A stretch of DNA of 64,000 bases from Enterobacteria phage Aplg8. The stretch lies in the sequence record NC_054902.1; one strand, written 5' to 3'. A program made the translations under genes and the position numbers. Under the pieces are notes generated by a model. It ran no database searches, was not told the DNA's origin, and was given only the letters and a program-made list of their open reading frames with translations. Shown piece after piece: positions 19,046-60,672 of the stretch (positions are counted from its first letter, which is position 1; every line of letters starts with the position of its first letter).

Positions 19046-20859
19046 TGGCTCATCCATTCTTTGCGAAGGTCAGCATTATCTCCCATGAGCATTTCAAAAA
19101 GCTCTTTCCAGTTCTCAGGAAGTTTAACAACATCATATACTGGATTTTGAATCATCTCACGATATTCAGATTTTTCCAAAGAGCCAAGTCCTTTAATATA
19201 ACGGATGCTATGTTTAGGTAGAGCATCTTTGGCACTCTCATATTCAGCGACTGTATAAAACCATTCTTGTTTTTTACCGACCTGAGCGATGATTACAGGA
19301 GTTTTGACAAAGCGAATTCGTCCTTGCTCAAACAATTCTGGCCAATTACTAAAAAACCCGAGCAGAGAAGGATAAATGCTTCCTAGACCATCATGGTCAG
19401 CATCAGTCATAATAGCAATATTGCGATAATTCAAGTTTTCAGCTTTTTCACCAAGAACTAGACCAGTGATTGCGCAAATATCAAATAGTTCTTTGTTTTT
19501 AAGCATATCGGCATATGACATACCCCAGCTATTAAGAACTTTACCGCGCAATGGATAACCACCATGAAGTTCTTTATCGCGAACATCAATAAGATATCCG
19601 ATAGCTGAATCACCCTCAGTCAAGAACAATGTAGTGTCAGCATCTTTACCGCAAAGATTCGCTTTGATATGTTTGTGAACCTTAGCTTTAGAAGCCTTTT
19701 TAGCTGCTTTAGTTTCTGCTGCTTTTTCTGCCGCCAATTTACGAGCCAAAGCAGCTTCAATAATCGGCATTAAAATTGCTTCATTATTTAGAATAGCGCG
19801 TGAAATCTTTTTAGCATCAAGTTGAATATGACTACGGATTTCACCAAATGGAGAAGTCAAACGCTCTTTAGTTTGAGAATCAAATCGCATGTTTTTCATA
19901 TCACGAACAAACATAACGATAGTCAAACATTCTTTGACACGCGCTTTGGTTACATCAATTTTGAACTTACGTTTGATTTGTGGAATAAGGTCTTCACAAA
20001 TATCATCCATAACACAGTCAATGTGATGGCCACCATTCTTAGTATGAATGTTATTGACGTATGTTAATTGACGAAAACCATCCGGTGAACGACCAACCGC
20101 AATAGAACAATTTTCTTGTTCTTGAACGATAGCATGTTCATCATATTGGCGTGCGTATTTCTTAAAATTACCCTGAACCTTTTTACCATTAAAGGTAAAT
20201 TGAATATCAGGATAAACAACAGCAAGTGTTTGGAGACGATCTAGTGTAATGTCAAGATAAACTTGGGACAGCTCATTAGTTTCAAATGACATAAAATCAG
20301 GAATGAAAGTAACACGAGTTCCTTTCCATTTTCCAGGAATATCTTCCCATGATTTATTTTCCATGCCATTTGAGCAACGAACTACAATATTATTTTGACC
20401 ATCGCCAGTTTCACCGACAAACATCACAGAAAAAATGTTTGTCAAACTAGAACCAACACCGTTCATACCGCCAGTGACGCGTTCTTTATCATCACCGAAG
20501 TTACCACCTGCTTTTGGAATAGTCCATGCGGCAACAGGACCAGGAATTTCTTCACCGGTAGGTGTTTTAACCATCGCTTGTGGAATACCGCGACCGTTAT
20601 CTTCAACTGTTACTTGATTGTTTTTAATAGTAACATTAATTTTATTTGCGAATTTAAACTTAGTACGAATACCTTCATCTACTGAGTTATCGATAATTTC
20701 ATCAATAAGCTTAACAAGACCAGGTACATACTGAACACTTTCCCATTTACCAAACAGAAAGCGCTCATGCATTTCATTAGCAGAAGAGCCAATGTACATG
20801 CCACTACGCTTTTTGATATGTTCAATATCGCTCAGAATTTTAATTTCATTCTTAATCAT
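19042..20859 (-). CDS. 39: DNA topoisomerase II large subunit gp39 (GyrB-like), uninterrupted
   Basis: 605-606 aa single ORF; MIKNEIKILSDIEHIKKRSGMYIGSS... ATPase N-terminus and Toprim-like C-terminal region in one reading frame. Confidence 0.9.
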   Translation of the reverse strand: MIKNEIKILSDIEHIKKRSGMYIGSSANEMHERFLFGKWESVQYVPGLVKLIDEIIDNSVDEGIRTKFKFANKINVTIKNNQVTVEDNGRGIPQAMVKTPTGEEIPGPVAAWTIPKAGGNFGDDKERVTGGMNGVGSSLTNIFSVMFVGETGDGQNNIVVRCSNGMENKSWEDIPGKWKGTRVTFIPDFMSFETNELSQVYLDITLDRLQTLAVVYPDIQFTFNGKKVQGNFKKYARQYDEHAIVQEQENCSIAVGRSPDGFRQLTYVNNIHTKNGGHHIDCVMDDICEDLIPQIKRKFKIDVTKARVKECLTIVMFVRDMKNMRFDSQTKERLTSPFGEIRSHIQLDAKKISRAILNNEAILMPIIEAALARKLAAEKAAETKAAKKASKAKVHKHIKANLCGKDADTTLFLTEGDSAIGYLIDVRDKELHGGYPLRGKVLNSWGMSYADMLKNKELFDICAITGLVLGEKAENLNYRNIAIMTDADHDGLGSIYPSLLGFFSNWPELFEQGRIRFVKTPVIIAQVGKKQEWFYTVAEYESAKDALPKHSIRYIKGLGSLEKSEYREMIQNPVYDVVKLPENWKELFEMLMGDNADLRKEWMSQ

Positions 20860-32434: not shown

Positions 32435-32644
32435 TTAAATTACATGATTATTTATAATAAATTCTCGCGGAACGTTAAAATACCCAATTTTAGTTAATAT
32501 AACAATATCGCCGTTAATAATTACCGGAGAATAATCGGCTGGAGCATTAAATTTCCAATGGGCTCTAATATTATATCCATCAGAACCAAATGCTCGACTA
32601 GCCGGTCTCCCGGCTTTTTGCCACGCGTAGAAATCAAATTTCAT
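32435..32644 (-). CDS. Hypothetical protein, 69 aa
   Basis: ORF between 56 and soc. Confidence 0.35.
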   Translation of the reverse strand: MKFDFYAWQKAGRPASRAFGSDGYNIRAHWKFNAPADYSPVIINGDIVILTKIGYFNVPREFIINNHVI

Positions 32645-32835
32645 TTTGAATGATCTATAATTAATTTTAAATCTTCTTCACTGACAAAAATTTCGTCAGG
32701 ACCTTCTATAACTTCAACCATACGAAGTTGATTAGTTAAGAGCTCACATACGAGCTCCTTGTTATAATCTTTAAATAGCTGGTCAATACGTTTCTTGCGG
32801 GCTTTCTTAAGCTGGCGTTTATTTAAACGAGCCAT
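32641..32835 (-). CDS. Hypothetical protein, 64 aa
   Basis: ORF between 56 and soc. Confidence 0.35.
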   Translation of the reverse strand: MARLNKRQLKKARKKRIDQLFKDYNKELVCELLTNQLRMVEVIEGPDEIFVSEEDLKLIIDHSK

Positions 32836-33353
32836 TAATAGCCTCTGTCTTGACGAGCGAAGTTTTCAGCATTTTTCAGATAATAAAGTTTAAATATTTC
32901 TTCAGCTGACATTCCAAGAGCAATGAATTTATTCATGAAAAAGTGAAATTGATCAATCAGTTCAAATTTAATTTCAAGTTGATCTTCAGGAGATAAATCT
33001 TGAATTTTCTTGGATTGCATTTCAGAATAACGTTTCTTCCAAGGTTTCCATACAGCAGAAGCTTCTTTTTCACCATTACTCATACCACCAAGAGAAGTAT
33101 ATAGCTCGCGAGTTTCGTCTGCGATATAATCGTCTTGGTTTCGCAGCCAAGCAAGAACTTCTCCTGCAGTTTCAAGTGAATCAGGATGACGATTTGTTTC
33201 TGGTTTATCATTAGCCAAACGAATCTGTAAATGCCGCTGCATATCAAGCATAACCTGCAGTGGGTCAATATTGTGCATAATATTCTCAGCATATGCACGA
33301 TTTGCTTTATCAACACCTTCGATCAAATGAGCACATTCATTAAAGTAAGCCAT
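32835..33353 (-). CDS. 56: dCTP pyrophosphatase gp56 (MazG-like)
   Basis: About 172 aa from MAYFNECAHLIEGVDKA... with GAAAGGAAA ribosome-binding site; the ORF-track N-terminal extension is probably not translated. Confidence 0.85.
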   Translation of the reverse strand: MAYFNECAHLIEGVDKANRAYAENIMHNIDPLQVMLDMQRHLQIRLANDKPETNRHPDSLETAGEVLAWLRNQDDYIADETRELYTSLGGMSNGEKEASAVWKPWKKRYSEMQSKKIQDLSPEDQLEIKFELIDQFHFFMNKFIALGMSAEEIFKLYYLKNAENFARQDRGY

Positions 33354-38098: not shown

Positions 38099-39254
38099 TT
38101 AACTGTTCGAGGTCAGTTTCTAAATCAGCTGCTGATTTACTTTTACTTTCTGGAGATTTAAATTTTTCAACCTTTGAGTTAATCAATTCATCAACTTCAG
38201 CTTCAACAATTTCATTACTATCAATAGCACCTAATTGATAAGCACGTTTAATAGCATCTCGGAATGGTTGATGCTTAAATAAAGGACCCCAGAATGTAGT
38301 GCAGTTGGTATCTTTTGCACGCCAAGATTTTTCTTCGCGAATCATCTCGCCGGTTTCTTCGTCAAGAAATTCACGAGCATACCAGCCATTTTTAGGTTTT
38401 ACTACAAATCCTAATTCTAGAGCCATATCTAACAATCCAGAATAAGGATCGATACCACCGTCAAATTTAACATCAATAAAGAATTTACTTTTTTCTTTAA
38501 CGGTACGAGATTTTTCTACATTTAGAACAAATTGATACCCCTGAAGATCAGAACCATCTTTAATCTGGCGTTTACCGATAATGAATACAGTATCAGCCGA
38601 ATACATTACGCCTGTACCACCTGTCATCACGGTTTTACTAAACATTTCAATTGTTTCAATTGTATGGTTAACCGCAACGCACGGAATATTTTTAATGCTA
38701 AAATAAGGAGTAACAATACGGAATAATGACTTCAGTGATTTAGCACGAGTCATATCTGCCACAGATTTTTCATTCAAGGCATCTTCCGTTTCTTTCTTAG
38801 AAGCCATATTACCAATTGAGTCGATGAATACTATAACCTTTTCACCACGCTCAATAGCTTCAAGCTGATTCACCATATCAATTTTCAGCTGTTCAACTGA
38901 CTGGATTGGCGTATGAATTACTCGTTCCGGGTCAACTCCCATGGATCGCAAATAAGCTGGAGTAATACCAAATTCGCTATCATAGAATAGACAAACCGCG
39001 TCAGGATATTTGTTCAAATACGCCGCAACCATAGTCAAAGACATATTTGATTTAAAGTGTTTAGAAGGACCTGCAAAAATAGTTAAACCAGACTGCATGC
39101 CGCCATCAATCGCACCAGAAATAGCAATATTAAGCATTGGGATTTTTGTACGGATTACATCCTTTTCATTAAAGAATTTAGATGTAGTCAGTTCAGCAGT
39201 CATTTTAGAAGTGGAAGCTTTAATCAAACGGGATTTTAAATCTGCAATAGACAT
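38073..39254 (-). CDS. uvsX: UvsX recombinase (RecA-like)
   Basis: 393 aa; MSIADLKSRLIKASTSKMTAEL..., Walker A GPSKHFKS; T4 UvsX-like. Confidence 0.9.
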   Translation of the reverse strand: MSIADLKSRLIKASTSKMTAELTTSKFFNEKDVIRTKIPMLNIAISGAIDGGMQSGLTIFAGPSKHFKSNMSLTMVAAYLNKYPDAVCLFYDSEFGITPAYLRSMGVDPERVIHTPIQSVEQLKIDMVNQLEAIERGEKVIVFIDSIGNMASKKETEDALNEKSVADMTRAKSLKSLFRIVTPYFSIKNIPCVAVNHTIETIEMFSKTVMTGGTGVMYSADTVFIIGKRQIKDGSDLQGYQFVLNVEKSRTVKEKSKFFIDVKFDGGIDPYSGLLDMALELGFVVKPKNGWYAREFLDEETGEMIREEKSWRAKDTNCTTFWGPLFKHQPFRDAIKRAYQLGAIDSNEIVEAEVDELINSKVEKFKSPESKSKSAADLETDLEQLSDMEEFNE

Positions 39255-39331
39255 TCATTTTTTCCATAGGCATCATTATATTTTCCTCACTGGTTAAAGA
39301 TAGAGTAATTATAACACAATAAATTTAGGCA

Positions 39332-40174
39332 TTAATCAACTGCTATTGGATGAATAGCATTAAACTTATGAAATGCTTCTGATTTTTCTTTACGCGAAAC
39401 ACACATGCGAAGAACCTTTAATGGCTCGTCTTCTTCACCCAACGATTTTCGTTTTTCAATATTCGACGTTTTCCAACGAGCTTGCTCTGGAAACTCTCTA
39501 TTGATTTGCTCAAGCGCTCTATTATGTTTAGAATTACTACGAATTGAACTACACCCACCAGGAGCTTGCGCTTTACCTGATACAACCAGATATTTGAACA
39601 AGGCCAAATGCGGATAACCTTGATTAATTAAATTGAGAAATGCATACATATCTTCGCACAAATCAATTTTTCCATACCCAATTTGTTCTGTCGTAAGTTT
39701 TCCGAGGTCATACCATGTATTCGTGAATCCATATGAATTTTCACGATAATTACCCCAAGATGAAGTAATTTTAAAAATAGGTAGACGAGCATGGCCATGA
39801 TAATACCCGCAATCCATGGCATCCTCAACATATTGAATCAATTCATAGAACTGTTCACGAGTCAATTGATTGACTTTATCTACGCAACGACGATCATCTC
39901 TTTTTCGCATTGAACTCATACGAATAGTAGTATCATCGTCAATCATCCAGATTCGTTGGCCTGCATACATATCAGTAATTGCTTTACGAGTACCGGCAAT
40001 TCCGTTTACATCATCAGGAATAGTTATAATTTTAGCTCTAGACCCATAGGCATCATAATAAGCTTTTTCTTCATGTTCACGCACTACAATATGGGGTTCA
40101 TAATCAGTCGGAAACATATCAAGGGCAGAAACTGCCCCTACACGTTGATAACTTGGAATTACGAATTGAATCAT
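39332..40174 (-). CDS. Putative GT-A fold glycosyltransferase (DxD motif) at the beta-gt locus; candidate hmC-glucosyl modifying enzyme
   Basis: About 280 aa; N-terminal FVIPSYQR strand and IWMIDDDTT (DxD) motif; sits between uvsX and 42 where T4 has beta-gt; ATG overlaps the gene 42 TGA. Confidence 0.55.
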   Translation of the reverse strand: MIQFVIPSYQRVGAVSALDMFPTDYEPHIVVREHEEKAYYDAYGSRAKIITIPDDVNGIAGTRKAITDMYAGQRIWMIDDDTTIRMSSMRKRDDRRCVDKVNQLTREQFYELIQYVEDAMDCGYYHGHARLPIFKITSSWGNYRENSYGFTNTWYDLGKLTTEQIGYGKIDLCEDMYAFLNLINQGYPHLALFKYLVVSGKAQAPGGCSSIRSNSKHNRALEQINREFPEQARWKTSNIEKRKSLGEEDEPLKVLRMCVSRKEKSEAFHKFNAIHPIAVD

Positions 40175-40911
40175 TTCCACTCACCGTTATAATCTTTTTT
40201 CACAATATGAGTTTCGCCAGTATTCCACCAATGATCAACCAAGTAAAAATGACGAGAATATACATGAAGACTTCCAACATTCCATATAATAGAACCTGCT
40301 TTATACTGACGAGTTGAATCGCCGGCATTCAAATCAGATACTAATTTATCTAATACGTATTTTTGCCATGCATAATCATTACGGAATCCGAAGACCACGT
40401 CATTTGAGCGCATGCTTACTACTGCATTGACTTTCTTATCACGAATCAGGTACTGTACTGTATTAGTACACATGAAATCTGACATACCATCTTTATTGTA
40501 GTCAAATTGCATGGATGGACGAGTATAAATCATGATACCACGTCGAGAATCAGGATTTTGACCAAGTTCAGCTAAACACATATCATACTGGGCATAGTTA
40601 TCTTCTGACCAAATAGCCCAACCATAATTCGAGTTAATTTCGCCTTTAGAAGATGCTACCTGCTGCCAAATCTTTGGTGTTTCGCCTGGAATATCTTTGA
40701 CAAACAGACTTTGAGACTTGTACCATTCAAGTTCACGCTGAATGTATTCATCATTAAGAGCGCCAAAAATAAAGGGTTCATCTGCTACAAATGATGCGCC
40801 AATAATTTCAATAGTTTTAACACCGGTTTTATCAACTACGAAATCTTTTTCTTTTAATGCAAGCCCCAAATGAAGACGGATTTCTTCAACTGTCATAGAG
40901 TCACTAATCAT
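40171..40911 (-). CDS. 42: dCMP hydroxymethylase gp42
   Basis: 246 aa, same as T4 gp42; thymidylate-synthase-like fold motifs. Confidence 0.9.
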   Translation of the reverse strand: MISDSMTVEEIRLHLGLALKEKDFVVDKTGVKTIEIIGASFVADEPFIFGALNDEYIQRELEWYKSQSLFVKDIPGETPKIWQQVASSKGEINSNYGWAIWSEDNYAQYDMCLAELGQNPDSRRGIMIYTRPSMQFDYNKDGMSDFMCTNTVQYLIRDKKVNAVVSMRSNDVVFGFRNDYAWQKYVLDKLVSDLNAGDSTRQYKAGSIIWNVGSLHVYSRHFYLVDHWWNTGETHIVKKDYNGEWK

Positions 40912-46852: not shown

Positions 46853-47539
46853 TTAAAAATCGTGGGTAGAATCAGCTTCAAGAGCTACTACATAATTCGC
46901 GTGTTCACCTTCAAATTTAGCAGCACCTTGTTTACCTTTTGCCCAGAGCAGAAGTTTATAATTTCCTGGTTGCATTTTCATATTTGCCATATTGATAATG
47001 AAATTAAATGTATTTTCACCATCATAATCACCAAGAGTCAAAGAATATTTAACACGGGTAAGAGCAGAATCTTCTACTTTATTAAAACCGTTAATTACGA
47101 TTTTACCTTCTTTTACCGTGATAGCAATTGTATCAATCTGCAGACCACGAGATACACGCAACAGCTGTTGAAGGTCTTCAGCTTTAATTTCAGTAACAAC
47201 AGATGCTACCGGGAATGGAATTGGTTTATTAGGAGCAACTACTGTACTCGGATCGGCTGCTGGCCAAAAAATTGTTGAACGGGCATCAGCAATTTTAATA
47301 TTACCATCTTCTGACTGGGAAATTTCTGCATCGTCATTAACTAGAGACAGAATACCGAGAAAACCGTTCAAATCGTAAATCGCTACATCAAAATCAATAG
47401 TGTCAGAAATATTTGCTTCCGCATAAGTTGTACCATTAACTGCGCGAGTCATAATAAATTGACCGGATTTAAGCATAATACCAGAGTTAATAGTAGCGAA
47501 ATTTTTAAGCAGAGCAGTAGTATCTTTAGACAGTTTCAT
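46853..47539 (-). CDS. 45: Sliding clamp gp45
   Basis: 228 aa, same as T4 gp45. Confidence 0.9.
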   Translation of the reverse strand: MKLSKDTTALLKNFATINSGIMLKSGQFIMTRAVNGTTYAEANISDTIDFDVAIYDLNGFLGILSLVNDDAEISQSEDGNIKIADARSTIFWPAADPSTVVAPNKPIPFPVASVVTEIKAEDLQQLLRVSRGLQIDTIAITVKEGKIVINGFNKVEDSALTRVKYSLTLGDYDGENTFNFIINMANMKMQPGNYKLLLWAKGKQGAAKFEGEHANYVVALEADSTHDF

Positions 47540-47594: not shown

Positions 47595-47984
47595 TTAACG
47601 ATTAAAATCAGCCGCAATTGTTTCCGCAACAATTTGAGCAGCAACAATTAGACGTTCATCTGCATTACCACAATAATCATCTTCAAGGCGTTCACCACAT
47701 GAAGTCATAATAAATTTAGCACCGGCGTTTAGAGATTCTGTAGTATGTTTGCGCATTAGTTCAATCCATTTATTACTTACTTCACGATCGATAGCTTCAT
47801 AATACGCATGACGAGCAGGTGCAGATTTAATTTTGTTCTGAATAACTTCCATTGCGTTATCAGAAAGAGACAAAACCCATGCTCGACGGATTTTATTTTG
47901 GTTTTGTGGATTTGATTCAGAACGCACGTGTTTTGGCTGAATATCTTTTACATCAACAGTATAATTCACAGTAATTTTAGTCAT
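47595..47984 (-). CDS. rpbA: RpbA RNA-polymerase-binding protein
   Basis: 129 aa, same as T4 RpbA; position upstream of 45. Confidence 0.7.
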
Positions 47985-47993
47985 AATACACCT

Positions 47994-48185
47994 TTAGTCA
48001 TAATAATCAGTAACAGTCCAAGCTTCATTTCTATTGGACATTATTTTTGTATATTCTGCTTTAAATGCATTCCTAAGCATATATTCAGTAACTATATGCT
48101 CTTCATTAGAAAAATTATTTCTCAGAATATATCGTTTTATTTCAGGAAAAGTTAATAGATGCTGTCCAGTTGAATATTCTGCCAC
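47994..48185 (-). CDS. Hypothetical protein, 63 aa
   Basis: ORF between 46 and rpbA. Confidence 0.4.
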   Translation of the reverse strand: MAEYSTGQHLLTFPEIKRYILRNNFSNEEHIVTEYMLRNAFKAEYTKIMSNRNEAWTVTDYYD

Positions 48186-48195
48186 AGTTCCTCCG

Positions 48196-48203
48196 TATAA
48201 ATA
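48196..48203 (+). promoter_or_regulatory. T4-type late promoter (TATAAATA) upstream of the + strand HNH ORF
   Basis: Exact TATAAATA about 34 nt upstream of the ATG at 48237. Confidence 0.5.
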
Positions 48204-48236
48204 TGTTTATCACTCGCTGTATCAAAAGGATATGTT

Positions 48237-48953
48237 ATGAATTATAAACTAATTTATGAAAAGTTAATCTCTAATGCTAAATCTCGAAAACTTGATTGCT
48301 ATACTGAATCTCATCACATTATACCACGCTGTTTAAATGGCAGCGATGATGCCTCAAACTTAGTAGATTTAACACCAGAAGAGCACTATGTAGCTCATCA
48401 ACTTTTAGTAAAAATTTATCCTTCTGAACCAAAATTAGTCTATGCTGCTAACATGATGACAGTTTCCACGAAATACGCTAAACGTAACAATAAAACTTTC
48501 GGTTGGATTCGTCGTAAACTCTGGGAAATAGAAAAGAATAAAGAATTCTCCCAGGAGACACGAAAGAAAATGTCTGATGCAGTAGCTAATAAAGCAAGAC
48601 TAACTTGTCCACATTGCGGTAAGTCCGGATTAAGCGGGAATATGAATCGATGGCATTTTGATAACTGCCCGAATCACCCTAATCCTAAAGTTAGACCACC
48701 GATGTCTAAAGAACACAGAAATAATATCTCAAACGGGCTTAAAGCAATCATTCTTGAAGAAACATCCTGCGAATTCTGCGGAATGATAGGCAAGAAATGC
48801 GTTATCGCAGCGCATAGAAATTTCTGCAAGAAAAATCCAAATGGACGCAAGAAAACTGAAAAGACTGGTACTTGCGTCCATTGTGGTAAAGTTACCACTT
48901 TCGGAAATTTATCAAGATGGCATAATGATAACTGTAAATATAAACCTAGCTAA
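48237..48953 (+). CDS. HNH-family (homing) endonuclease-like protein with three C-terminal zinc-finger-like repeats
   Basis: 238 aa; HNH core ESHHIIPRCLNGSDDASNLVDLTPEEHYVAH; three repeats of C-x2-C-G...RWH.DNC...NP (from CPHCGK, CEFCGM, CVHCGK); opposite strand to its neighbours; its stop overlaps the gene 46 stop. Confidence 0.6.
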   Translation: MNYKLIYEKLISNAKSRKLDCYTESHHIIPRCLNGSDDASNLVDLTPEEHYVAHQLLVKIYPSEPKLVYAANMMTVSTKYAKRNNKTFGWIRRKLWEIEKNKEFSQETRKKMSDAVANKARLTCPHCGKSGLSGNMNRWHFDNCPNHPNPKVRPPMSKEHRNNISNGLKAIILEETSCEFCGMIGKKCVIAAHRNFCKKNPNGRKKTEKTGTCVHCGKVTTFGNLSRWHNDNCKYKPS

Positions 48954-50634
48954 TCTTAGCTAAACTAAATCTACCAACTTTTTCCATTTGAATATGCTGA
49001 CCATATTCTTGTGGGTCATGGTCTTTATGCGAAATTATGAAGAAGTTGGTATCCTTCAAACCATCTAAAATTTTAGCTACATTTTTAATACCTTCAGCAT
49101 CAAATGCACCGTCATACACTTCATCAAGAAATAAACAACTTATTTTAACACCTGAAACTTTTTCAGCAATATCACGCCAAGTAAATAAAAGAGCAATATC
49201 AATTCGTGCTTTTTCACCTTGACTGAATGAAGCATAACTAAAATCTTCACGACCACGGGATTTAATTGTCTCATTAAATTCTTCATCTAATGTAAACACA
49301 TAATCCGCTTCCATTATTTTAAGATAATGGTTAATCTGCTTATTAAATAATGGAATGTACTTTTTAATAATAGCACCTTTAATACCAGAATCTTTGAGCA
49401 TATCAGTCAAAATTCCTCGGTGGTATTTTTCCATTACTAAATTAGTTTTTGTCTTAACAATTTTATCAAGTTCTTCTTGAAGCAGTGCTATTTCATCAGC
49501 ATGGTCAATAAACTCAGAAGATGCTTTTTCTATAGCTGCTTTAACTTTTTTAGCTTTATCTACCGTCGTGATTAGAGATTGCTTTTTATTGCGAATATCA
49601 TTTGCCAACGACTGCTGAGTTTTAATATTATCTCGGTATTCATCAACAAGAACTTTTAAATTATCACGGTGTGTTGAAAGCTGTTCAAACGAATGCGTAC
49701 ATTCAGAAACTTTATCTTTAATTTTAGAAACAACTTTATCACCGGAACTTAATTGTGACAAGCAGGTTGGACATAATCCACCTTCGTGATACATATTAAT
49801 GACTTTATTATACGAGTCAATTTTTGATTTAATTAAAACTGCTTCTTGACCGATTTTATTAAATGCATCAGTCGGGTCTTCATCCAAAACAATATTAACT
49901 AATCTTTCATTAGCTTCTTCTATTTCCGATTTTAGCGTTCTAGCTTCTTTTGCCAAATCATCATACATATTTTGTAGACGAGTAAGGTTGTCACCCGTTA
50001 ATTTTTTCTGGCGTTCAACGTTATCATTATATATTTTAATTTGTTGGATAATACTATCTTTTTTAACATCAAGCACTTGGTTTTGTGAATTTAATTCACG
50101 TATTAGTGCTTTATTAAGCTTATCCATTTCAGCTAATGTTCCTACCTCAAGCAGGTCTTCCACAAGCTTTCTTCGCGCAGGGGTCGACAAACCCATGAAA
50201 GGGGTATACCCTGCTGTACCAAGGACAACAATCTGCTTGAAACTGGCATATGACATTCCGATAAGCTGTTCAAATTCTGCTTGGAAATCTTTACTGCTGG
50301 CAGATTCATTAAGACGTGTACCGTTAACGGTGATTTCGAAAACGTTTGGTTTTTGTCCTCTTTTGATATAGTACTTTTTCTCATCATATTCCATCCACAA
50401 TTCAACTAAAAGTTCTTTCTTATTTGTGCTGTTTATTAATTGACCTTTCTTTACATCACGAAATGGCTTGCCAAAAAGCCCAAATGTGATGGCTTCTAAC
50501 ATAGTAGACTTACCACCGCCATTTCGTCCAGTAATAAGAGTTTTTTGAACCTTATCTAATTGAATGTCAACTCCATTTTGACCAACTGACATTATATTTT
50601 TATATTTTACTCTATTAAGTTTAAATGATTTCAT
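48946..50634 (-). CDS. 46: Recombination endonuclease subunit gp46 (Rad50/SbcC-like)
   Basis: 562 aa; Walker A GRNGGGKST, zinc hook CPTC, signature and D-loop at the C-terminus. Confidence 0.9.
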   Translation of the reverse strand: MKSFKLNRVKYKNIMSVGQNGVDIQLDKVQKTLITGRNGGGKSTMLEAITFGLFGKPFRDVKKGQLINSTNKKELLVELWMEYDEKKYYIKRGQKPNVFEITVNGTRLNESASSKDFQAEFEQLIGMSYASFKQIVVLGTAGYTPFMGLSTPARRKLVEDLLEVGTLAEMDKLNKALIRELNSQNQVLDVKKDSIIQQIKIYNDNVERQKKLTGDNLTRLQNMYDDLAKEARTLKSEIEEANERLVNIVLDEDPTDAFNKIGQEAVLIKSKIDSYNKVINMYHEGGLCPTCLSQLSSGDKVVSKIKDKVSECTHSFEQLSTHRDNLKVLVDEYRDNIKTQQSLANDIRNKKQSLITTVDKAKKVKAAIEKASSEFIDHADEIALLQEELDKIVKTKTNLVMEKYHRGILTDMLKDSGIKGAIIKKYIPLFNKQINHYLKIMEADYVFTLDEEFNETIKSRGREDFSYASFSQGEKARIDIALLFTWRDIAEKVSGVKISCLFLDEVYDGAFDAEGIKNVAKILDGLKDTNFFIISHKDHDPQEYGQHIQMEKVGRFSLAKIS

Positions 50635-50649
50635 TTTGTATCCAATTGT

Positions 50650-51504
50650 TCACAATGAAGAAAATTCTTTAACTAAAGCCTGTAATGAAGCCTCTATTGG
50701 ATATCCATTCTTAACTAACATTTTCCTAAACATTACATGTTTAGGACGATTATATGATATCCACAATTCATACAATTTATCTTTATTATCCCAATGATAG
50801 CCTTTTCGTCGAGATGCTATATGAGCTTTTCTAATCTCCGGATTTTTCCAACTAGCAGCTACTGAATTTGATATAGCTATTTTATATTCAGGTTTTGATA
50901 AAGCAGCACGAACAGCCTTTTGGTGTTTAATTTTATTTTCTTCGTTATTAAACCATTCCCTTGAAGCCATTGAAATTTTTTGTTTTGTTTTAAAATTATT
51001 TAATCTTTCTTTATTATCTTTCCTATTTTTTGCTACTGAAAAATATTTTAATGCCCTTTCTCTAGCAGCATTTCTATTTTGCGGATTTGAATAATACTGT
51101 TGAAGCCTTTTTGATATTGTGTCACTTACATCTTGTTTTATAAAACTATATTCAGCAGCTATTAAATCAACTTCGGCTAAAGATAAATTTTTATATGTTT
51201 TTCCTGACATCATTCTATTTAAAGCATTTAGCATTTTTCCATTTTTACCTTTTGCTAATAAGAAGTGTGCTTTAAAATGATTAAAATGACTTAAATTAAC
51301 TAAATTCCATGTAGATTTTAAATATTCAGGAAATATTGATTTAGGAAGCACGTGGTGTGCTTCCGTTTTACCTGGAGTTTTAACAGTTGAATTCACAGAA
51401 ATAAAATTAATGTAAGACTTGGCGTCTTCTTCACTCAACGCTAATTTTTCAACTAATTCCTTTATTAAAAATTCATCATTAATGTCAAGTTTAAAATTCT
51501 TCAC
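50650..51504 (-). CDS. HNH-family (homing) endonuclease-like protein, apparent GTG start
   Basis: 284 aa; HNH core EAHHVLPKSIFPEY...NLVNLSHFNHFKAH; basic repeat-rich C-terminal half; AT-rich; first 12 codons duplicate the 5' end of the upstream small ORF. Confidence 0.55.
   Translation of the reverse strand: MKNFKLDINDEFLIKELVEKLALSEEDAKSYINFISVNSTVKTPGKTEAHHVLPKSIFPEYLKSTWNLVNLSHFNHFKAHFLLAKGKNGKMLNALNRMMSGKTYKNLSLAEVDLIAAEYSFIKQDVSDTISKRLQQYYSNPQNRNAARERALKYFSVAKNRKDNKERLNNFKTKQKISMASREWFNNEENKIKHQKAVRAALSKPEYKIAISNSVAASWKNPEIRKAHIASRRKGYHWDNKDKLYELWISYNRPKHVMFRKMLVKNGYPIEASLQALVKEFSSL
51470..51488 (-). repeat. Direct repeat copy A (aattcatcattaatgtcaa) at the 5' end of the HNH ORF
   Basis: 19/19 identical to 51673-51691, with about 10 of 15 flanking matches; encodes (L/F)DINDEF. 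Confidence 0.8.
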
Positions 51505-53145: not shown

Positions 53146-54346
53146 ATTTTGTAATAATGTCAAACTGTTCTTTAAAGCAGAAGCTTGAATCTTGATGCTG
53201 ATACAAAAATTCATAAGCTTTTTCGCGTTCACGGTCATAAAGAGTTCGGTCAGATGACAGTTCTTTAATACGTTCAAACGTTGATTCCATGTCATTTTCA
53301 TCAAACCAAATGATACCGCTATCATGCGAGGTCAAAGGAGTATTATCAACACGGAATTTTAAATTTTCGCCAGTAGATTTCCAAAATACCGGAATTGTTC
53401 CACATGCACCAAGCTCGAGATGAGTATATTCTAAAGAACGTTGTAGATATTTTTTATCCAACTTACTCAACTGATAACCAAATCCGGATTTACTCATGCG
53501 TTCAAGCATTTCGCTATTTACATAACGGTCAAGAATTTGCGTTGGCAAATTAGGAGCAATTTTAATTTGGTCTACTTGATGAAGACGATAATACTCGTAT
53601 GGAATTCCTTTTTCTTTAATAGGAATGAACGCTGGAGAACGTTCCAGACCTTCCATAATAGTACTTAGTCCTGCAGGTTTAAGATGTTTTTCATGAAAAT
53701 CAAACATCTGATAAAAACCTTTCCATGTAGTCGTACGACCAATCCAACGGTTGATATTCATGTTAATTTCAGAAACATCTTTCCAGTAGGTTGACCGAAC
53801 CTTCGCAATATCCATAGGAGGCTGAAAGTTATATACTGTCGGTGCTTCTTCAATATCATCAAACAGAGAAACTGTTTCAGGATACCATTCTTTCATCAGA
53901 ACTTTATTAAAATCACCATTATCAGAATGGCTAAAAATAACATCAGCTCGACGAACAGTTTCTTCTAATCCCAAATTTCGGCGCAAAGAAAGAGAAGAAT
54001 GGTCATGTTGATAAACTACAACACGAACCGAAGGTTTAATGTTATCAATAATTTTTTTATAGTTATTAATAGTGTCTTCTTCAACCGAAGTAGCAGGAAC
54101 TGAATTGATAATTAGAATATCACAATCATTTACCAGCTTAAGTGTTTTATCATATTCTTTTGCCAATAAAACCGGAATTGAAAATGATTTATAATCATGC
54201 GCGCAATTACGAGTAAATGATTTATCTTTAGCATAAACCAAAGTTACTTCATGACCATTCTTAATAAACCAATCACGTTGCTCAAGAGAAAATTTAGTTA
54301 CACCACAACCTTCAAGACCTCGAGCCATAAAAATACATACTTTCAT
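53144..54346 (-). CDS. agt: DNA alpha-glucosyltransferase (hmC alpha-glucosylation)
   Basis: 400 aa, same as T4 AGT; MKVCIFMARGLEGCGVTKF... near-identical to T4 AGT as recalled. Confidence 0.9.
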   Translation of the reverse strand: MKVCIFMARGLEGCGVTKFSLEQRDWFIKNGHEVTLVYAKDKSFTRNCAHDYKSFSIPVLLAKEYDKTLKLVNDCDILIINSVPATSVEEDTINNYKKIIDNIKPSVRVVVYQHDHSSLSLRRNLGLEETVRRADVIFSHSDNGDFNKVLMKEWYPETVSLFDDIEEAPTVYNFQPPMDIAKVRSTYWKDVSEINMNINRWIGRTTTWKGFYQMFDFHEKHLKPAGLSTIMEGLERSPAFIPIKEKGIPYEYYRLHQVDQIKIAPNLPTQILDRYVNSEMLERMSKSGFGYQLSKLDKKYLQRSLEYTHLELGACGTIPVFWKSTGENLKFRVDNTPLTSHDSGIIWFDENDMESTFERIKELSSDRTLYDREREKAYEFLYQHQDSSFCFKEQFDIITK

Positions 54347-54398
54347 TTAATATCCTCTTTGTTTTGGTTTATTTTACCAAAAATTTATAAAGCAATAT

Positions 54399-58858: not shown

Positions 58859-60672
58859 TGGTGTTTAACCCTATGCATGATTTCTTTATTTTTACCGAGA
58901 TTAAATCCGCGCTCGTTCGGATTTCCCAAATAACCACATGTTCTTCTTATGGTATTCATCTTTTTAGGATCAGTTTCTCCACAAATAGAACAAACAAATC
59001 CGTTTTCAGTAGGAGTCATTTCATGGGTACTTCCGCATGTAAAACACTTATCTACTGGCATGTTAACACCAAAATAATCTAAATGTTGTGCAGCATAATC
59101 CCACACGGCCTCAAGACCTTTTAAGTTATTTTTCATATCAGGAAGTTCAACATAAGAAATGTGACCACCTGTCGCAATGAAATGATATGGCGCTTCACGA
59201 GAAATCTTTTCAAACGGAGTAATATTTTCTTCTACTGAAACATGGAAACTGTTAGTGTACCAGCCTTTATCGGTAACATCTTTTACACTTCCATATTTTT
59301 CTGTATCAAGTTTACAGAAGCGATAACAAAGGTTTTCAGCAGGAGTCGAATACAAACTAAAAGCAAACCCAGTTCTTTCAGCCCACTGTTTAAGACGAGC
59401 ATTCATTTTAGTTAAAATTTCTTGTCCAATGTCACGACCGACAAGAATATTCAATTCATGAATACCAATGTATCCTAAAGACACTGAACTTCTACCGTTT
59501 TTAAATAACTCAATTATGTCGTCATCAGGTTTAAGACGAACCCCGAATGCACCTTCTTGGTAAAGAATAGGAGCAACAGTCGCTTTAACTCCTTTTAAGG
59601 AACTAATTCTACACATCAAAGCTTCAAAACACAGATCCATTCGTTCATTGAATAATTCAACAAATTTCTGTTCATTGAACTGTGTTCCAATATAAGAATC
59701 TAACGCGATGCGAGGAAGATTCAGTGTTACAACACCAAGATTATTACGTCCATCAAGAATTTCATTACCAGTCGAATCTTTCCATACGCTCAAGAAACTA
59801 CGACAACCCATTGGAGAAACAGGAATAGATGAGCCAGTGATAGCTTTATTGTTCTTAGCTGAAATAATATCAGGATACATTCTTTTGCTTGCGCACTCTA
59901 GAGCAAGCTGCTTAATATCGTAGTTCGGATCGTCTTTATAAAGATTAACACCTTCTTCAACGAACATAACAAGCTTAGGGAAAATAGGAGTTATCCCATC
60001 ACGACCGAGACCTTTAATACGATTTTTCAGAATTGCTTTCTGAATCATTCGTTCAGTCCAGTCAGTTCCTGTACCAAATGTAATTGTTACAAAAGGTGTT
60101 TGTCCGTTTGAACTAAAGAGAGTATTTACTTCATATTCATAAGCTTGGAACGCATCGTATACGTCTTTTTCTGTTTTAGATTGGGCATAATTCAACGCAT
60201 CAGCGATTTGCCATTTTTCTGCATCCTCAATATGTTTTGCATAGGTGCGTTTAACATAAGGAGAAAGGACTTTGTCTACATTTGCAAAAGTCGTTCCACC
60301 GTATTGATGGGAAGCAACCTGTGCAGTAATTTGTGCCATAATTGCAGTAGCAACACCGATTGATTTAGGAGTTTCAATCTGTGCATTACCGAGCTTAAAT
60401 CCGTTCTCAAGCATTCCTTTTAAATCTACTAAACAGCAATTAGTAAATGGAAGAGCAGGGGAATAATCAATATCATGGAAATGAATAATTCCGCTTTCAT
60501 GCGCTTTCATAATAAAAGACGGGACCATATTTTTGGCAATGTGTTTAGACACAATACCAGCCATAAGGTCCCGTTGAGTTGGAAAAACACGAGAATCTTT
60601 ATTAGCATTCTCGTTCAAAAGGTCTTTATTAGTTTTATGAATCAATCCTTCAATTTCTTTTTCAATTGTCAT
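58855..60672 (-). CDS. nrdD: Anaerobic ribonucleoside-triphosphate reductase NrdD, uninterrupted
   Basis: 605 aa continuous ORF; C-terminal zinc ribbon (CFTCGS...CSICG) and glycyl-radical region (RTCGYLG). Confidence 0.9.
   Translation of the reverse strand: MTIEKEIEGLIHKTNKDLLNENANKDSRVFPTQRDLMAGIVSKHIAKNMVPSFIMKAHESGIIHFHDIDYSPALPFTNCCLVDLKGMLENGFKLGNAQIETPKSIGVATAIMAQITAQVASHQYGGTTFANVDKVLSPYVKRTYAKHIEDAEKWQIADALNYAQSKTEKDVYDAFQAYEYEVNTLFSSNGQTPFVTITFGTGTDWTERMIQKAILKNRIKGLGRDGITPIFPKLVMFVEEGVNLYKDDPNYDIKQLALECASKRMYPDIISAKNNKAITGSSIPVSPMGCRSFLSVWKDSTGNEILDGRNNLGVVTLNLPRIALDSYIGTQFNEQKFVELFNERMDLCFEALMCRISSLKGVKATVAPILYQEGAFGVRLKPDDDIIELFKNGRSSVSLGYIGIHELNILVGRDIGQEILTKMNARLKQWAERTGFAFSLYSTPAENLCYRFCKLDTEKYGSVKDVTDKGWYTNSFHVSVEENITPFEKISREAPYHFIATGGHISYVELPDMKNNLKGLEAVWDYAAQHLDYFGVNMPVDKCFTCGSTHEMTPTENGFVCSICGETDPKKMNTIRRTCGYLGNPNERGFNLGKNKEIMHRVKHQ

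Follow-up and report, generated by a model that had tools for sequence, protein, structure and literature searches.

The closest described relatives of the gene reported here are the T4 Mob endonucleases and, in its finger region, the intron endonuclease I-TevIII. MobE is the characterised member of the Mob family and makes a strand-specific nick more than 100 bp from its own gene, with co-conversion; it nicks one strand 122-126 nt inside T2 nrdB, and flanking markers are co-converted (PMC2790892). I-TevIII of phage RB3 is an intron-encoded HNH endonuclease with two zinc fingers, for which the motif CX2C-X12-13-H-X3-C has been defined, and it dimerises via its finger region to make a double-strand break (PMC1865063). 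Its cysteines C211, C214, C242 and C245 hold one zinc per finger, and their mutation abolishes zinc and DNA binding (Robbins et al., PMC1865063); mutation of C211/C214 leads to the loss of one zinc, and the C-terminal region that carries the fingers also mediates dimerisation (PMC1865063). Among T4 homing endonuclease genes, segD is the only one oriented against its neighbours (PMC2988022), and phage RB32 is listed with two mob-like HNH genes (PMC2993671, Table 5). Here we analysed a stretch of 64,000 nucleotides from Enterobacteria phage Aplg8 (NC_054902.1), hereafter the window, in which an open reading frame (ORF) of 238 amino acids (aa) lies between genes 45.2 and 46 on the strand opposite to both. 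We consider it likely that this ORF encodes an active, free-standing member of the Mob family of T4 homing endonucleases whose DNA-binding half consists of three C2HC zinc fingers of the I-TevIII type. To judge from its sequence, the gene is genuine and probably active, and its product joins two halves with different ancestry, a Mob-type nuclease and I-TevIII-type fingers.

The features of the locus, in window coordinates, are the following.

48180-48185, - strand: start of 45.2 at the cassette's left edge, rewritten to GTG GCA in the window versus ATG in T4.
48195-48965, no strand assigned: the whole inserted cassette, 771 bp versus a 56-bp T4 segment at ~33260-33315 (pairwise alignment).
48196-48203, + strand: late promoter box TATAAATA, an exact match, 33 nt 5' of the ATG.
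48208-48224, + strand: leader element TATCA-N7-TATCA, conserved in most orthologues, 3' of the promoter box and 5' of the ribosome site.
48226-48230, + strand: Shine-Dalgarno sequence AAGGA, 6 nt 5' of the ATG.
48237-48953, + strand: the putative homing endonuclease ORF, 238 aa, with an ATG start and a TAA stop at 48951-48953.
48306-48398, + strand: predicted HNH catalytic core, aa 24-54, with E24, H26, H27, P30, G35, N41, H50 and H54.
48543-48581, + strand: weak NUMOD3-like linker segment, aa 103-115 (Pfam NUMOD3, E 0.14).
48606-48668, + strand: zinc finger 1, CPHCGKSGLSGNMNRWHFDNC, CX2C-X12-H-X3-C, 50% identical to I-TevIII finger 2; predicted local distance difference test (pLDDT) score in the structural model >90.
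48768-48827, + strand: zinc finger 2, CEFCGMIGKKCVIAAHRNFC, CX2C-X11-H-X3-C, counterpart of I-TevIII finger 1.
48873-48935, + strand: zinc finger 3, CVHCGKVTTFGNLSRWHNDNC, with an X12 spacer, counterpart of I-TevIII finger 2.
48946-49250, - strand: diverged 3' end of gene 46, the cassette-linked allele; a putative co-conversion or immunity tract.
48948-48961, no strand assigned: palindrome AGCTAA-TC-TTAGCT at the tail-to-tail junction, which contains the endonuclease stop and adjoins the gene 46 stop.

A preliminary description of this DNA had read the ORF as a selfish-element-like HNH endonuclease, and the homology of its N-terminal half bears this out. In BLASTP comparisons with all T4 homing endonucleases, residues 1-115 matched MobB (44% identity, E 8e-29) and MobE (42%, E 4e-28), and the nuclease half also matched MobD (53% over 75 aa, E 1e-22) and MobC (37%, E 2e-21). 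The protein matched PHROG 655, 'homing endonuclease', at E 1e-68, a PHROG to which the window's second HNH ORF also belongs. A total of 2304 homologues were recovered. The HNH core string that had been noticed, ESHHIIPRCLNGSDDASNLVDLTPEEHYVAH, is present at aa 24-54, and all the core residues listed above are invariant across 44 homologues. The Pfam HNH model PF01844 was matched by 27 of these 44 family members (best E 1.3e-5), and in the family profile the E-x-H-H...N...H core aligned with the HNH motifs of McrA (E 6e-4), Cas8-HNH, IscB and a group II intron maturase, with H26, H27, N41 and H50 (together with H54) corresponding residue for residue to the motif of McrA, Cas8-HNH and the maturase. 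From these matches the nuclease is therefore PF01844-like and of the Mob type rather than of the I-HmuI/HNH_3 type; the HNH_3 (PF13392) assignment that had been suggested fails, since a match to that profile is absent.

An AlphaFold2 model of the protein, with a mean pLDDT of 93, places the HNH core in a strand (24-27), a second strand (42-45) and a helix (47-60). NUMOD3, which is weak in the linker of this protein, was matched by 28 of the 44 family members, with a best E of 1.7e-29. Fold searches with the whole model returned weak matches only, to tandem classical zinc-finger arrays (e.g. CTCF) and to HNH domains; they are consistent with the assignment, and we give them no weight as evidence.

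In the C-terminal half, a regular-expression scan found three CX2C-X(11-12)-H-X3-C modules, at aa 124-144, 178-197 and 213-233, and when the protein was shuffled 20,000 times, at least one such finger pattern arose in only 98 cases. The twelve ligands of the fingers are all intact, and each finger takes a strand-strand-helix form in the AlphaFold2 model. Modules 1 and 3 align with each other at 56% identity (E 1.5e-8). The earlier claim of three tandem copies of a module containing RWH.DNC stands for the three C-x2-C...H-x3-C modules themselves; RWH.DNC occurs only in fingers 1 and 3, and the claim was overstated in this respect because module 2 shares the ligand spacing only. When compared with all T4 homing endonucleases, residues 118-238 matched only the surviving C-terminal fragment of T4 I-TevIII, and residues 174-236 aligned with residues 207-266 of full-length RB3 I-TevIII at 37% identity (E 8e-8), with C178, C181, C213 and C216 opposite C211, C214, C242 and C245. 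The proposal that these repeats are zinc-binding and recognise DNA is thereby strengthened, the finger region being homologous to fingers with experimental zinc and DNA binding. Finger 3 is the sole finger retained throughout the wider family, and its ligands C213, C216, H229 and C233 are invariant in the 44 homologues. Distant family members have runs of NUMOD3 repeats in place of fingers 1 and 2, and the DNA-binding half is therefore modular and variable.

The ORF is under purifying selection within Tequatrovirus: changed codons among three Tequatrovirus copies were synonymous versus non-synonymous in ratios of 18:3, 10:2 and 20:3 (~6:1). The length of the orthologues is 236-247 aa throughout.

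The cassette is ~715 bp larger than the T4 segment that it replaces, which comprises the 45.2-46 spacer (55 bp in T4, with no ORF in the T4 annotation) and the last codons of gene 46. Both neighbouring genes are altered at their ends. The C-terminus of gp46 is rewritten, reading RFSLAKIS before the stop in the window versus RFTVMV in T4, and in Dhakavirus and Mosigvirus, too, carriers and non-carriers of the cassette have different first two to three codons of 45.2. In Dhakavirus and Klebsiella phages that lack the cassette, gene 46 overlaps 45.2 (ATGA), and the insertion therefore lies exactly at the gene junction.

As had been anticipated, the ORF is not universal at this site, being missing from T4 and from ~90% of related records. 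Of the 595 phage records that matched the flanks, 58 contained it, 57 of these at 95% identity or more; the cassette was found in 9 of 59 Dhakavirus-type records and in 4 of 80 T4-like loci from IMG/VR. Full-length orthologues with 44-65% identity occupy the same 45.2/46 junction, also antisense, at 18 loci in at least five further T4-like lineages. Carriers include Dhakavirus KIT01 and IME281, Klebsiella phage Roth77, the RB69-like NHEP10 and Yersinia phages MHG19 and P8, and further orthologues stand on several metagenomic T4-like contigs, among them a group with just 35-39% gp46 identity to the window. Among orthologues of at least 42% identity (18 loci examined), exceptions to the site or the orientation numbered zero. 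A seemingly ectopic copy in Yersinia phage P8 was discarded, as it actually lies at the usual site, where 45.2 is mislabelled; in this record (vB_YenM_P8, PP693301.1, L189:2501-2692) the 45.2 homologue is annotated as 'DNA topoisomerase II medium subunit', an apparent mislabel.

Other genes were found at this junction as well. IMG/VR contig 648936715_000001 (L151:1752-2327) has a different endonuclease gene there, of 191 aa and on gene 46's strand, which we read from sequence motifs alone as an HNH plus AP2-like type; its presence makes the junction a hot spot for unrelated homing endonuclease genes. On another T4-like contig (L123:1750-2144), two small ORFs of 65 and 66 aa lie between gene 46 and 45.2, which gives yet another version of this junction.

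The gene itself is already annotated in dozens of public phage genomes, mostly as 'homing endonuclease' (in RB32 it is RB32ORF054w, 'similar to mobB'), and has apparently never been studied; we found no literature on this specific gene.

The cassette is linked to a diverged stretch of gene 46. Compared with seven cassette-free Tequatroviruses, the last ~250 nt of gene 46 showed 66-90% identity, rising to 98-100% beyond this tract, and on the rpbA and 45.2 side the identity was 98-100% right up to the cassette. The divergence of this stretch from cassette-free relatives is put at 15-35%. A 222-bp query from the tract found 58 records with at least 95% identity, none with 90-95% and all others with 81% or less, and the 58 records that have the tract allele match the count of 58 cassette carriers. 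A one-sided, sharply bounded tract also separates KIT01 from QL01 and Roth77 from Roth51, and in three genera the tract returns sharply to 97-100% identity after ~250 nt. Co-conversion from a diverged donor, together with selection for a cleavage-resistant allele, would produce this pattern, and MobE provides a precedent.

A donor for the diverged tract was sought, and no sampled lineage exceeded 83% identity; the best cassette-free allele reached 83% over the tract versus 98-99% over the adjacent core. The protein stretch CLFLDEVYDGAFDAEGIKNV is common to the tract and Klebsiella phage Roth77. We also considered the Leu of the gp46 'H-L-Q-M' motif as an immunity codon, its codon being CTT/CTC without the cassette versus ATT, TTA, TTA and TTG with it in four genus pairs, and dropped it as not general; the rule is broken by the independent carriers L179 and L180 (CTC) and L182 (CTT).

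The tract spans the part of gene 46 that codes for the Walker-B/D-loop region of the Rad50-like gp46. This stretch (~80-200 nt from the gene 46 stop, window ~49030-49150), compared in L008, L015-L018 and L104, is mosaic across genera, even among non-carriers: the gp46 allele of NHEP29 resembles that of KIT01, and the Tequatrovirus allele of L104 resembles that of RB69.

The late-promoter box and the ribosome-binding site given in the preliminary description were both recovered upstream of the ORF. The box TATAAATA occurs four times in the 64-kb window versus 10.3 times expected (at 2913, 7418, 32449 on the - strand and 48196), a strong deficit that would fit selection against stray late promoters. 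Placed by T4 position, the other three copies fall immediately 5' of genes 36, t and soc, which are T4 late genes. Among 15 orthologous leaders the promoter and the ribosome site are conserved, the exact TATAAATA being found in 10 of them and TAAATA being kept in the other 5.

Most of these 15 leaders also keep a TATC[AT]-N7-TATCA direct repeat (L006-L008, L019-L021 and L179-L186, with one-base variants in L019, L183, L185 and L186). The element is better conserved than the coding sequence, which has 44-65% identity, and could be an operator for the finger protein. Two other roles of the leader were considered and rejected. For an RNA hairpin controlling translation, RNAalifold gave no consensus pairs, and single-sequence folding energies were not below those of shuffles. 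For autorepression by mimicry of the homing site, as with I-TevI, local alignments of the promoter and leader with the empty site were no better than those of shuffles in four genera.

At the 3' end, the stop codons of the ORF and gene 46 had been described as overlapping tail-to-tail, which is not the case: the gene 46 stop CTA lies at 48946-48948 and the endonuclease stop TAA at 48951-48953, and it is the ORFs themselves that overlap, by 8 nt. A terminator scan called no intrinsic terminator between the convergent genes in the window, where there is only the weak palindrome. Several orthologous cassettes have a stronger, GC-rich hairpin at the same place, GCCTC-loop-GAGGC, with both stops in or near the loop.

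The domain homologies, the intact motifs, the fixed-site polymorphism, the tract linked to the cassette, purifying selection on the ORF and conservation of its promoter are shown here, whereas the timing of transcription, the target, the chemistry and homing itself are inferred. From the conserved promoter of the cassette, a late transcript would run on the strand opposite to the early/middle neighbours and, the promoter being the cassette's own, the enzyme would be made late in infection. The fingers, probably with the NUMOD3-like linker, would recognise an extended asymmetric sequence, at or close to the 46/45.2 junction, in a relative that lacks the cassette and infects the same cell. At the bound site the HNH domain would nick, as MobE does, or cut, possibly as a dimer making a double-strand break in the manner of I-TevIII. 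Phage recombination would then repair the lesion from the cassette genome and copy the cassette together with up to ~250 bp of the gene 46 3' end.

Several points weigh against an actively homing endonuclease. The 238-aa protein alone matches PF01844 at E 0.007 (16.9 bits, below the 21.4-bit cut-off). We found no cleavage, transcript or inheritance data for this gene in the paper collection searched, and a homing target site was sought and none was located or predicted. RB69 is without the cassette yet shares the allele of the carrier NHEP10, and in Mosigvirus the link between tract and cassette is looser. Finally, cassette identity correlates with backbone identity (Spearman 0.82 over 66 non-independent pairs from 12 lineages), which fits long residence with losses no less than frequent homing.

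The same correlation points to long residence in most lineages, and it bears on the alternative that survives best, although we judge it improbable: a long-resident, partly domesticated cassette that is kept for a benefit to the phage rather than for homing. The benefit could be exclusion of rival phages by cutting of gene 46, antisense transcription late in infection that crosses the gene 46 end, or a DNA-binding regulator acting on the leader repeat. Occupation of the same site in the same orientation in at least six T4-like lineages, with cassette identity tracking gp46 core identity, argues for such a role, as do the purifying selection on the ORF and a TATCA-N7-TATCA leader conserved more than the coding sequence, and there is a precedent in the homing endonuclease I-TevI, which in addition acts as a repressor of its own late promoter (PMC2988022). 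However, the distribution is patchy, at ~10% within each genus, unlike that of a fixed advantageous gene, and the leader does not resemble the empty site. The catalytic residues are all intact, so nuclease activity is under selection. The Tequatrovirus cassette is closest to those of Roth77, KIT01 and MHG19 (64-65%); with the Mosigvirus NHEP10, the nearest backbone relative, it shares 58% identity versus 81% for the gp46 core, and this, plus the foreign-looking gene 46 tract, indicates that the Tequatrovirus copy probably arrived laterally.

There is likewise a small chance that the lineage as a whole is an ancient resident dedicated to the 46/45.2 site, which has co-diverged with its T4-like hosts and persisted through an acquired second job. 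Candidates for this job are auto- or late regulation via the leader, or exclusion of rivals at the Walker-B/D-loop end of gene 46. If this were true, the element would drive inter-genus allele shuffling in the essential recombination gene 46, because the Walker-B/D-loop region of that gene is mosaic across genera.

That the gene is a decaying or catalytically dead relic is very doubtful. Such relics are common enough in T4, where many homing endonuclease genes are defunct (PMC2988022, Table 1), mobA being reduced to 37 aa and I-TevIII to 97 aa, and the failure of the protein alone to reach the Pfam HNH threshold would suit decay. However, all orthologues are of full length, every motif residue and all twelve finger ligands are intact, the ratio of synonymous to non-synonymous changes is ~6:1, and the promoter and ribosome site are conserved. 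We find it hardly credible that the protein is a general-purpose, non-mobile HNH nuclease with a housekeeping role (packaging-associated or restriction-like). In favour of this, the profile matches lead to HNH domains of the McrA type, of Cas8-HNH and of IscB and not to I-HmuI, and NCBIfam gives a weak IscB match. Against it, ~90% of close relatives grow without the gene, the T4 Mob proteins are its closest characterised relatives, its intergenic site is fixed and adjoins a diverged flank that is linked to it, and terminase genes are nowhere near.

An active Mob-family homing endonuclease gene, of an ordinary selfish kind, thus remains our preferred reading. The window is a segment of a Tequatrovirus genome, collinear with T4 from gene 34 through the map origin to nrdC and 92-98% identical to it across most blocks. 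As had been pointed out, the ORF lies on the + strand inside a - strand block, where it is the sole convincing + strand ORF of at least 90 aa. The - strand genes near it also include regA, 62 and 44; the others are as follows.

46853-47539, - strand: gene 45.
47595-47984, - strand: rpbA.
47994-48185, - strand: 45.2.
48946-50634, - strand: gene 46, encoding a Rad50-like protein.
50650-51504, - strand: second HNH ORF, followed by 46.1, 46.2 and 47.

The second HNH ORF, which encodes 284 aa and separates gene 46 from 46.1, is MobD-like (30% identity, E 2e-17). T4 lacks it and 69 phage records have it, T2, T6 and RB51 among them, and its distribution is independent of that of the 45.2/46 cassette. 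With this ORF on the other flank, the statement that gene 46 is bracketed by two selfish-like genes is fair for this particular genome. The first ~100 nt of gene 46, beside the second HNH ORF, are also diverged from T4.

Elsewhere, this genome lacks the gene 60/mobA insert, segF, mobB, mobC and the nrdD intron with I-TevII, all compared with T4, and differences or divergence from T4 also mark the segA/beta-gt and gene 56 regions. The sites of difference are 19377-19442, 32456-32835, 39242-40189, 54337-54362, ~58840 and 60134-60137. The set of homing endonucleases in this genome therefore differs from that of T4.

Overall, the observations of the preliminary description were partly confirmed and its interpretation is supported. 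The impact on annotation is small, the gene being correctly labelled 'homing endonuclease' in most public records. The protein is a clear natural example of domain shuffling between families of homing endonucleases, in which a Mob-type HNH nuclease is combined with an expanded array of I-TevIII-type fingers. That one lineage of the element occupies a single junction in at least six T4-like lineages, always in the same orientation and with the same type of promoter, bears on the statement that convincing evidence is lacking for the passage of such elements from one T4-like cluster to another (PMC2993671). The linked, sharply bounded divergent tract identifies a recombination hot spot at the 3' end of gene 46 and gives a convenient system in which to map by experiment the specificity of a three-finger nuclease of a bacterial virus.

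We finally compared the gene with the known systems. RB32ORF054w is the same gene at the same site, 98.4% identical in its nucleotides and different at 2 amino acids, and it and its GenBank equivalents ('homing endonuclease; similar to mobB', 'mob-like endonuclease') differ by strain-level substitutions only. With the T4 Mob proteins it shares the N-terminal domain 'MNY..IY..L...E.HHIIPR..GG.DD..NLV.LT..EH..AH.LL.KIY' at 37-53% identity and a free-standing, intergenic position that is patchy among relatives. As at the MobE nick site, the flank in the neighbouring conserved gene differs between carriers and non-carriers. In contrast, the finger region is unmatched in MobB, MobC, MobD and MobE, whereas the window protein has three C2HC fingers. 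The mobE gene is promoterless and co-oriented with its neighbours (PMC2790892) and lies between nrdA and nrdB, whereas the window gene is antisense at 46/45.2 and has its own late promoter. An antisense position inside an oppositely transcribed block is shared with segD, which, however, is of the GIY-YIG type and for which no own promoter was found (PMC2988022), unlike this HNH gene with its conserved TATAAATA box. I-TevIII has homologous CX2C-X11-13-H-X3-C fingers (E 8e-8), including the cysteines that hold zinc and are essential for DNA binding, the same modular layout of nuclease, linker and fingers, and an associated late promoter. The nuclease domains of the two proteins have no detectable similarity, the alignment with full-length RB3 I-TevIII being confined to the fingers, of which I-TevIII has two and the window protein three. 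I-TevIII is also encoded inside a group I intron, whereas the window gene is free-standing and leaves genes 46 and 45.2 uninterrupted.

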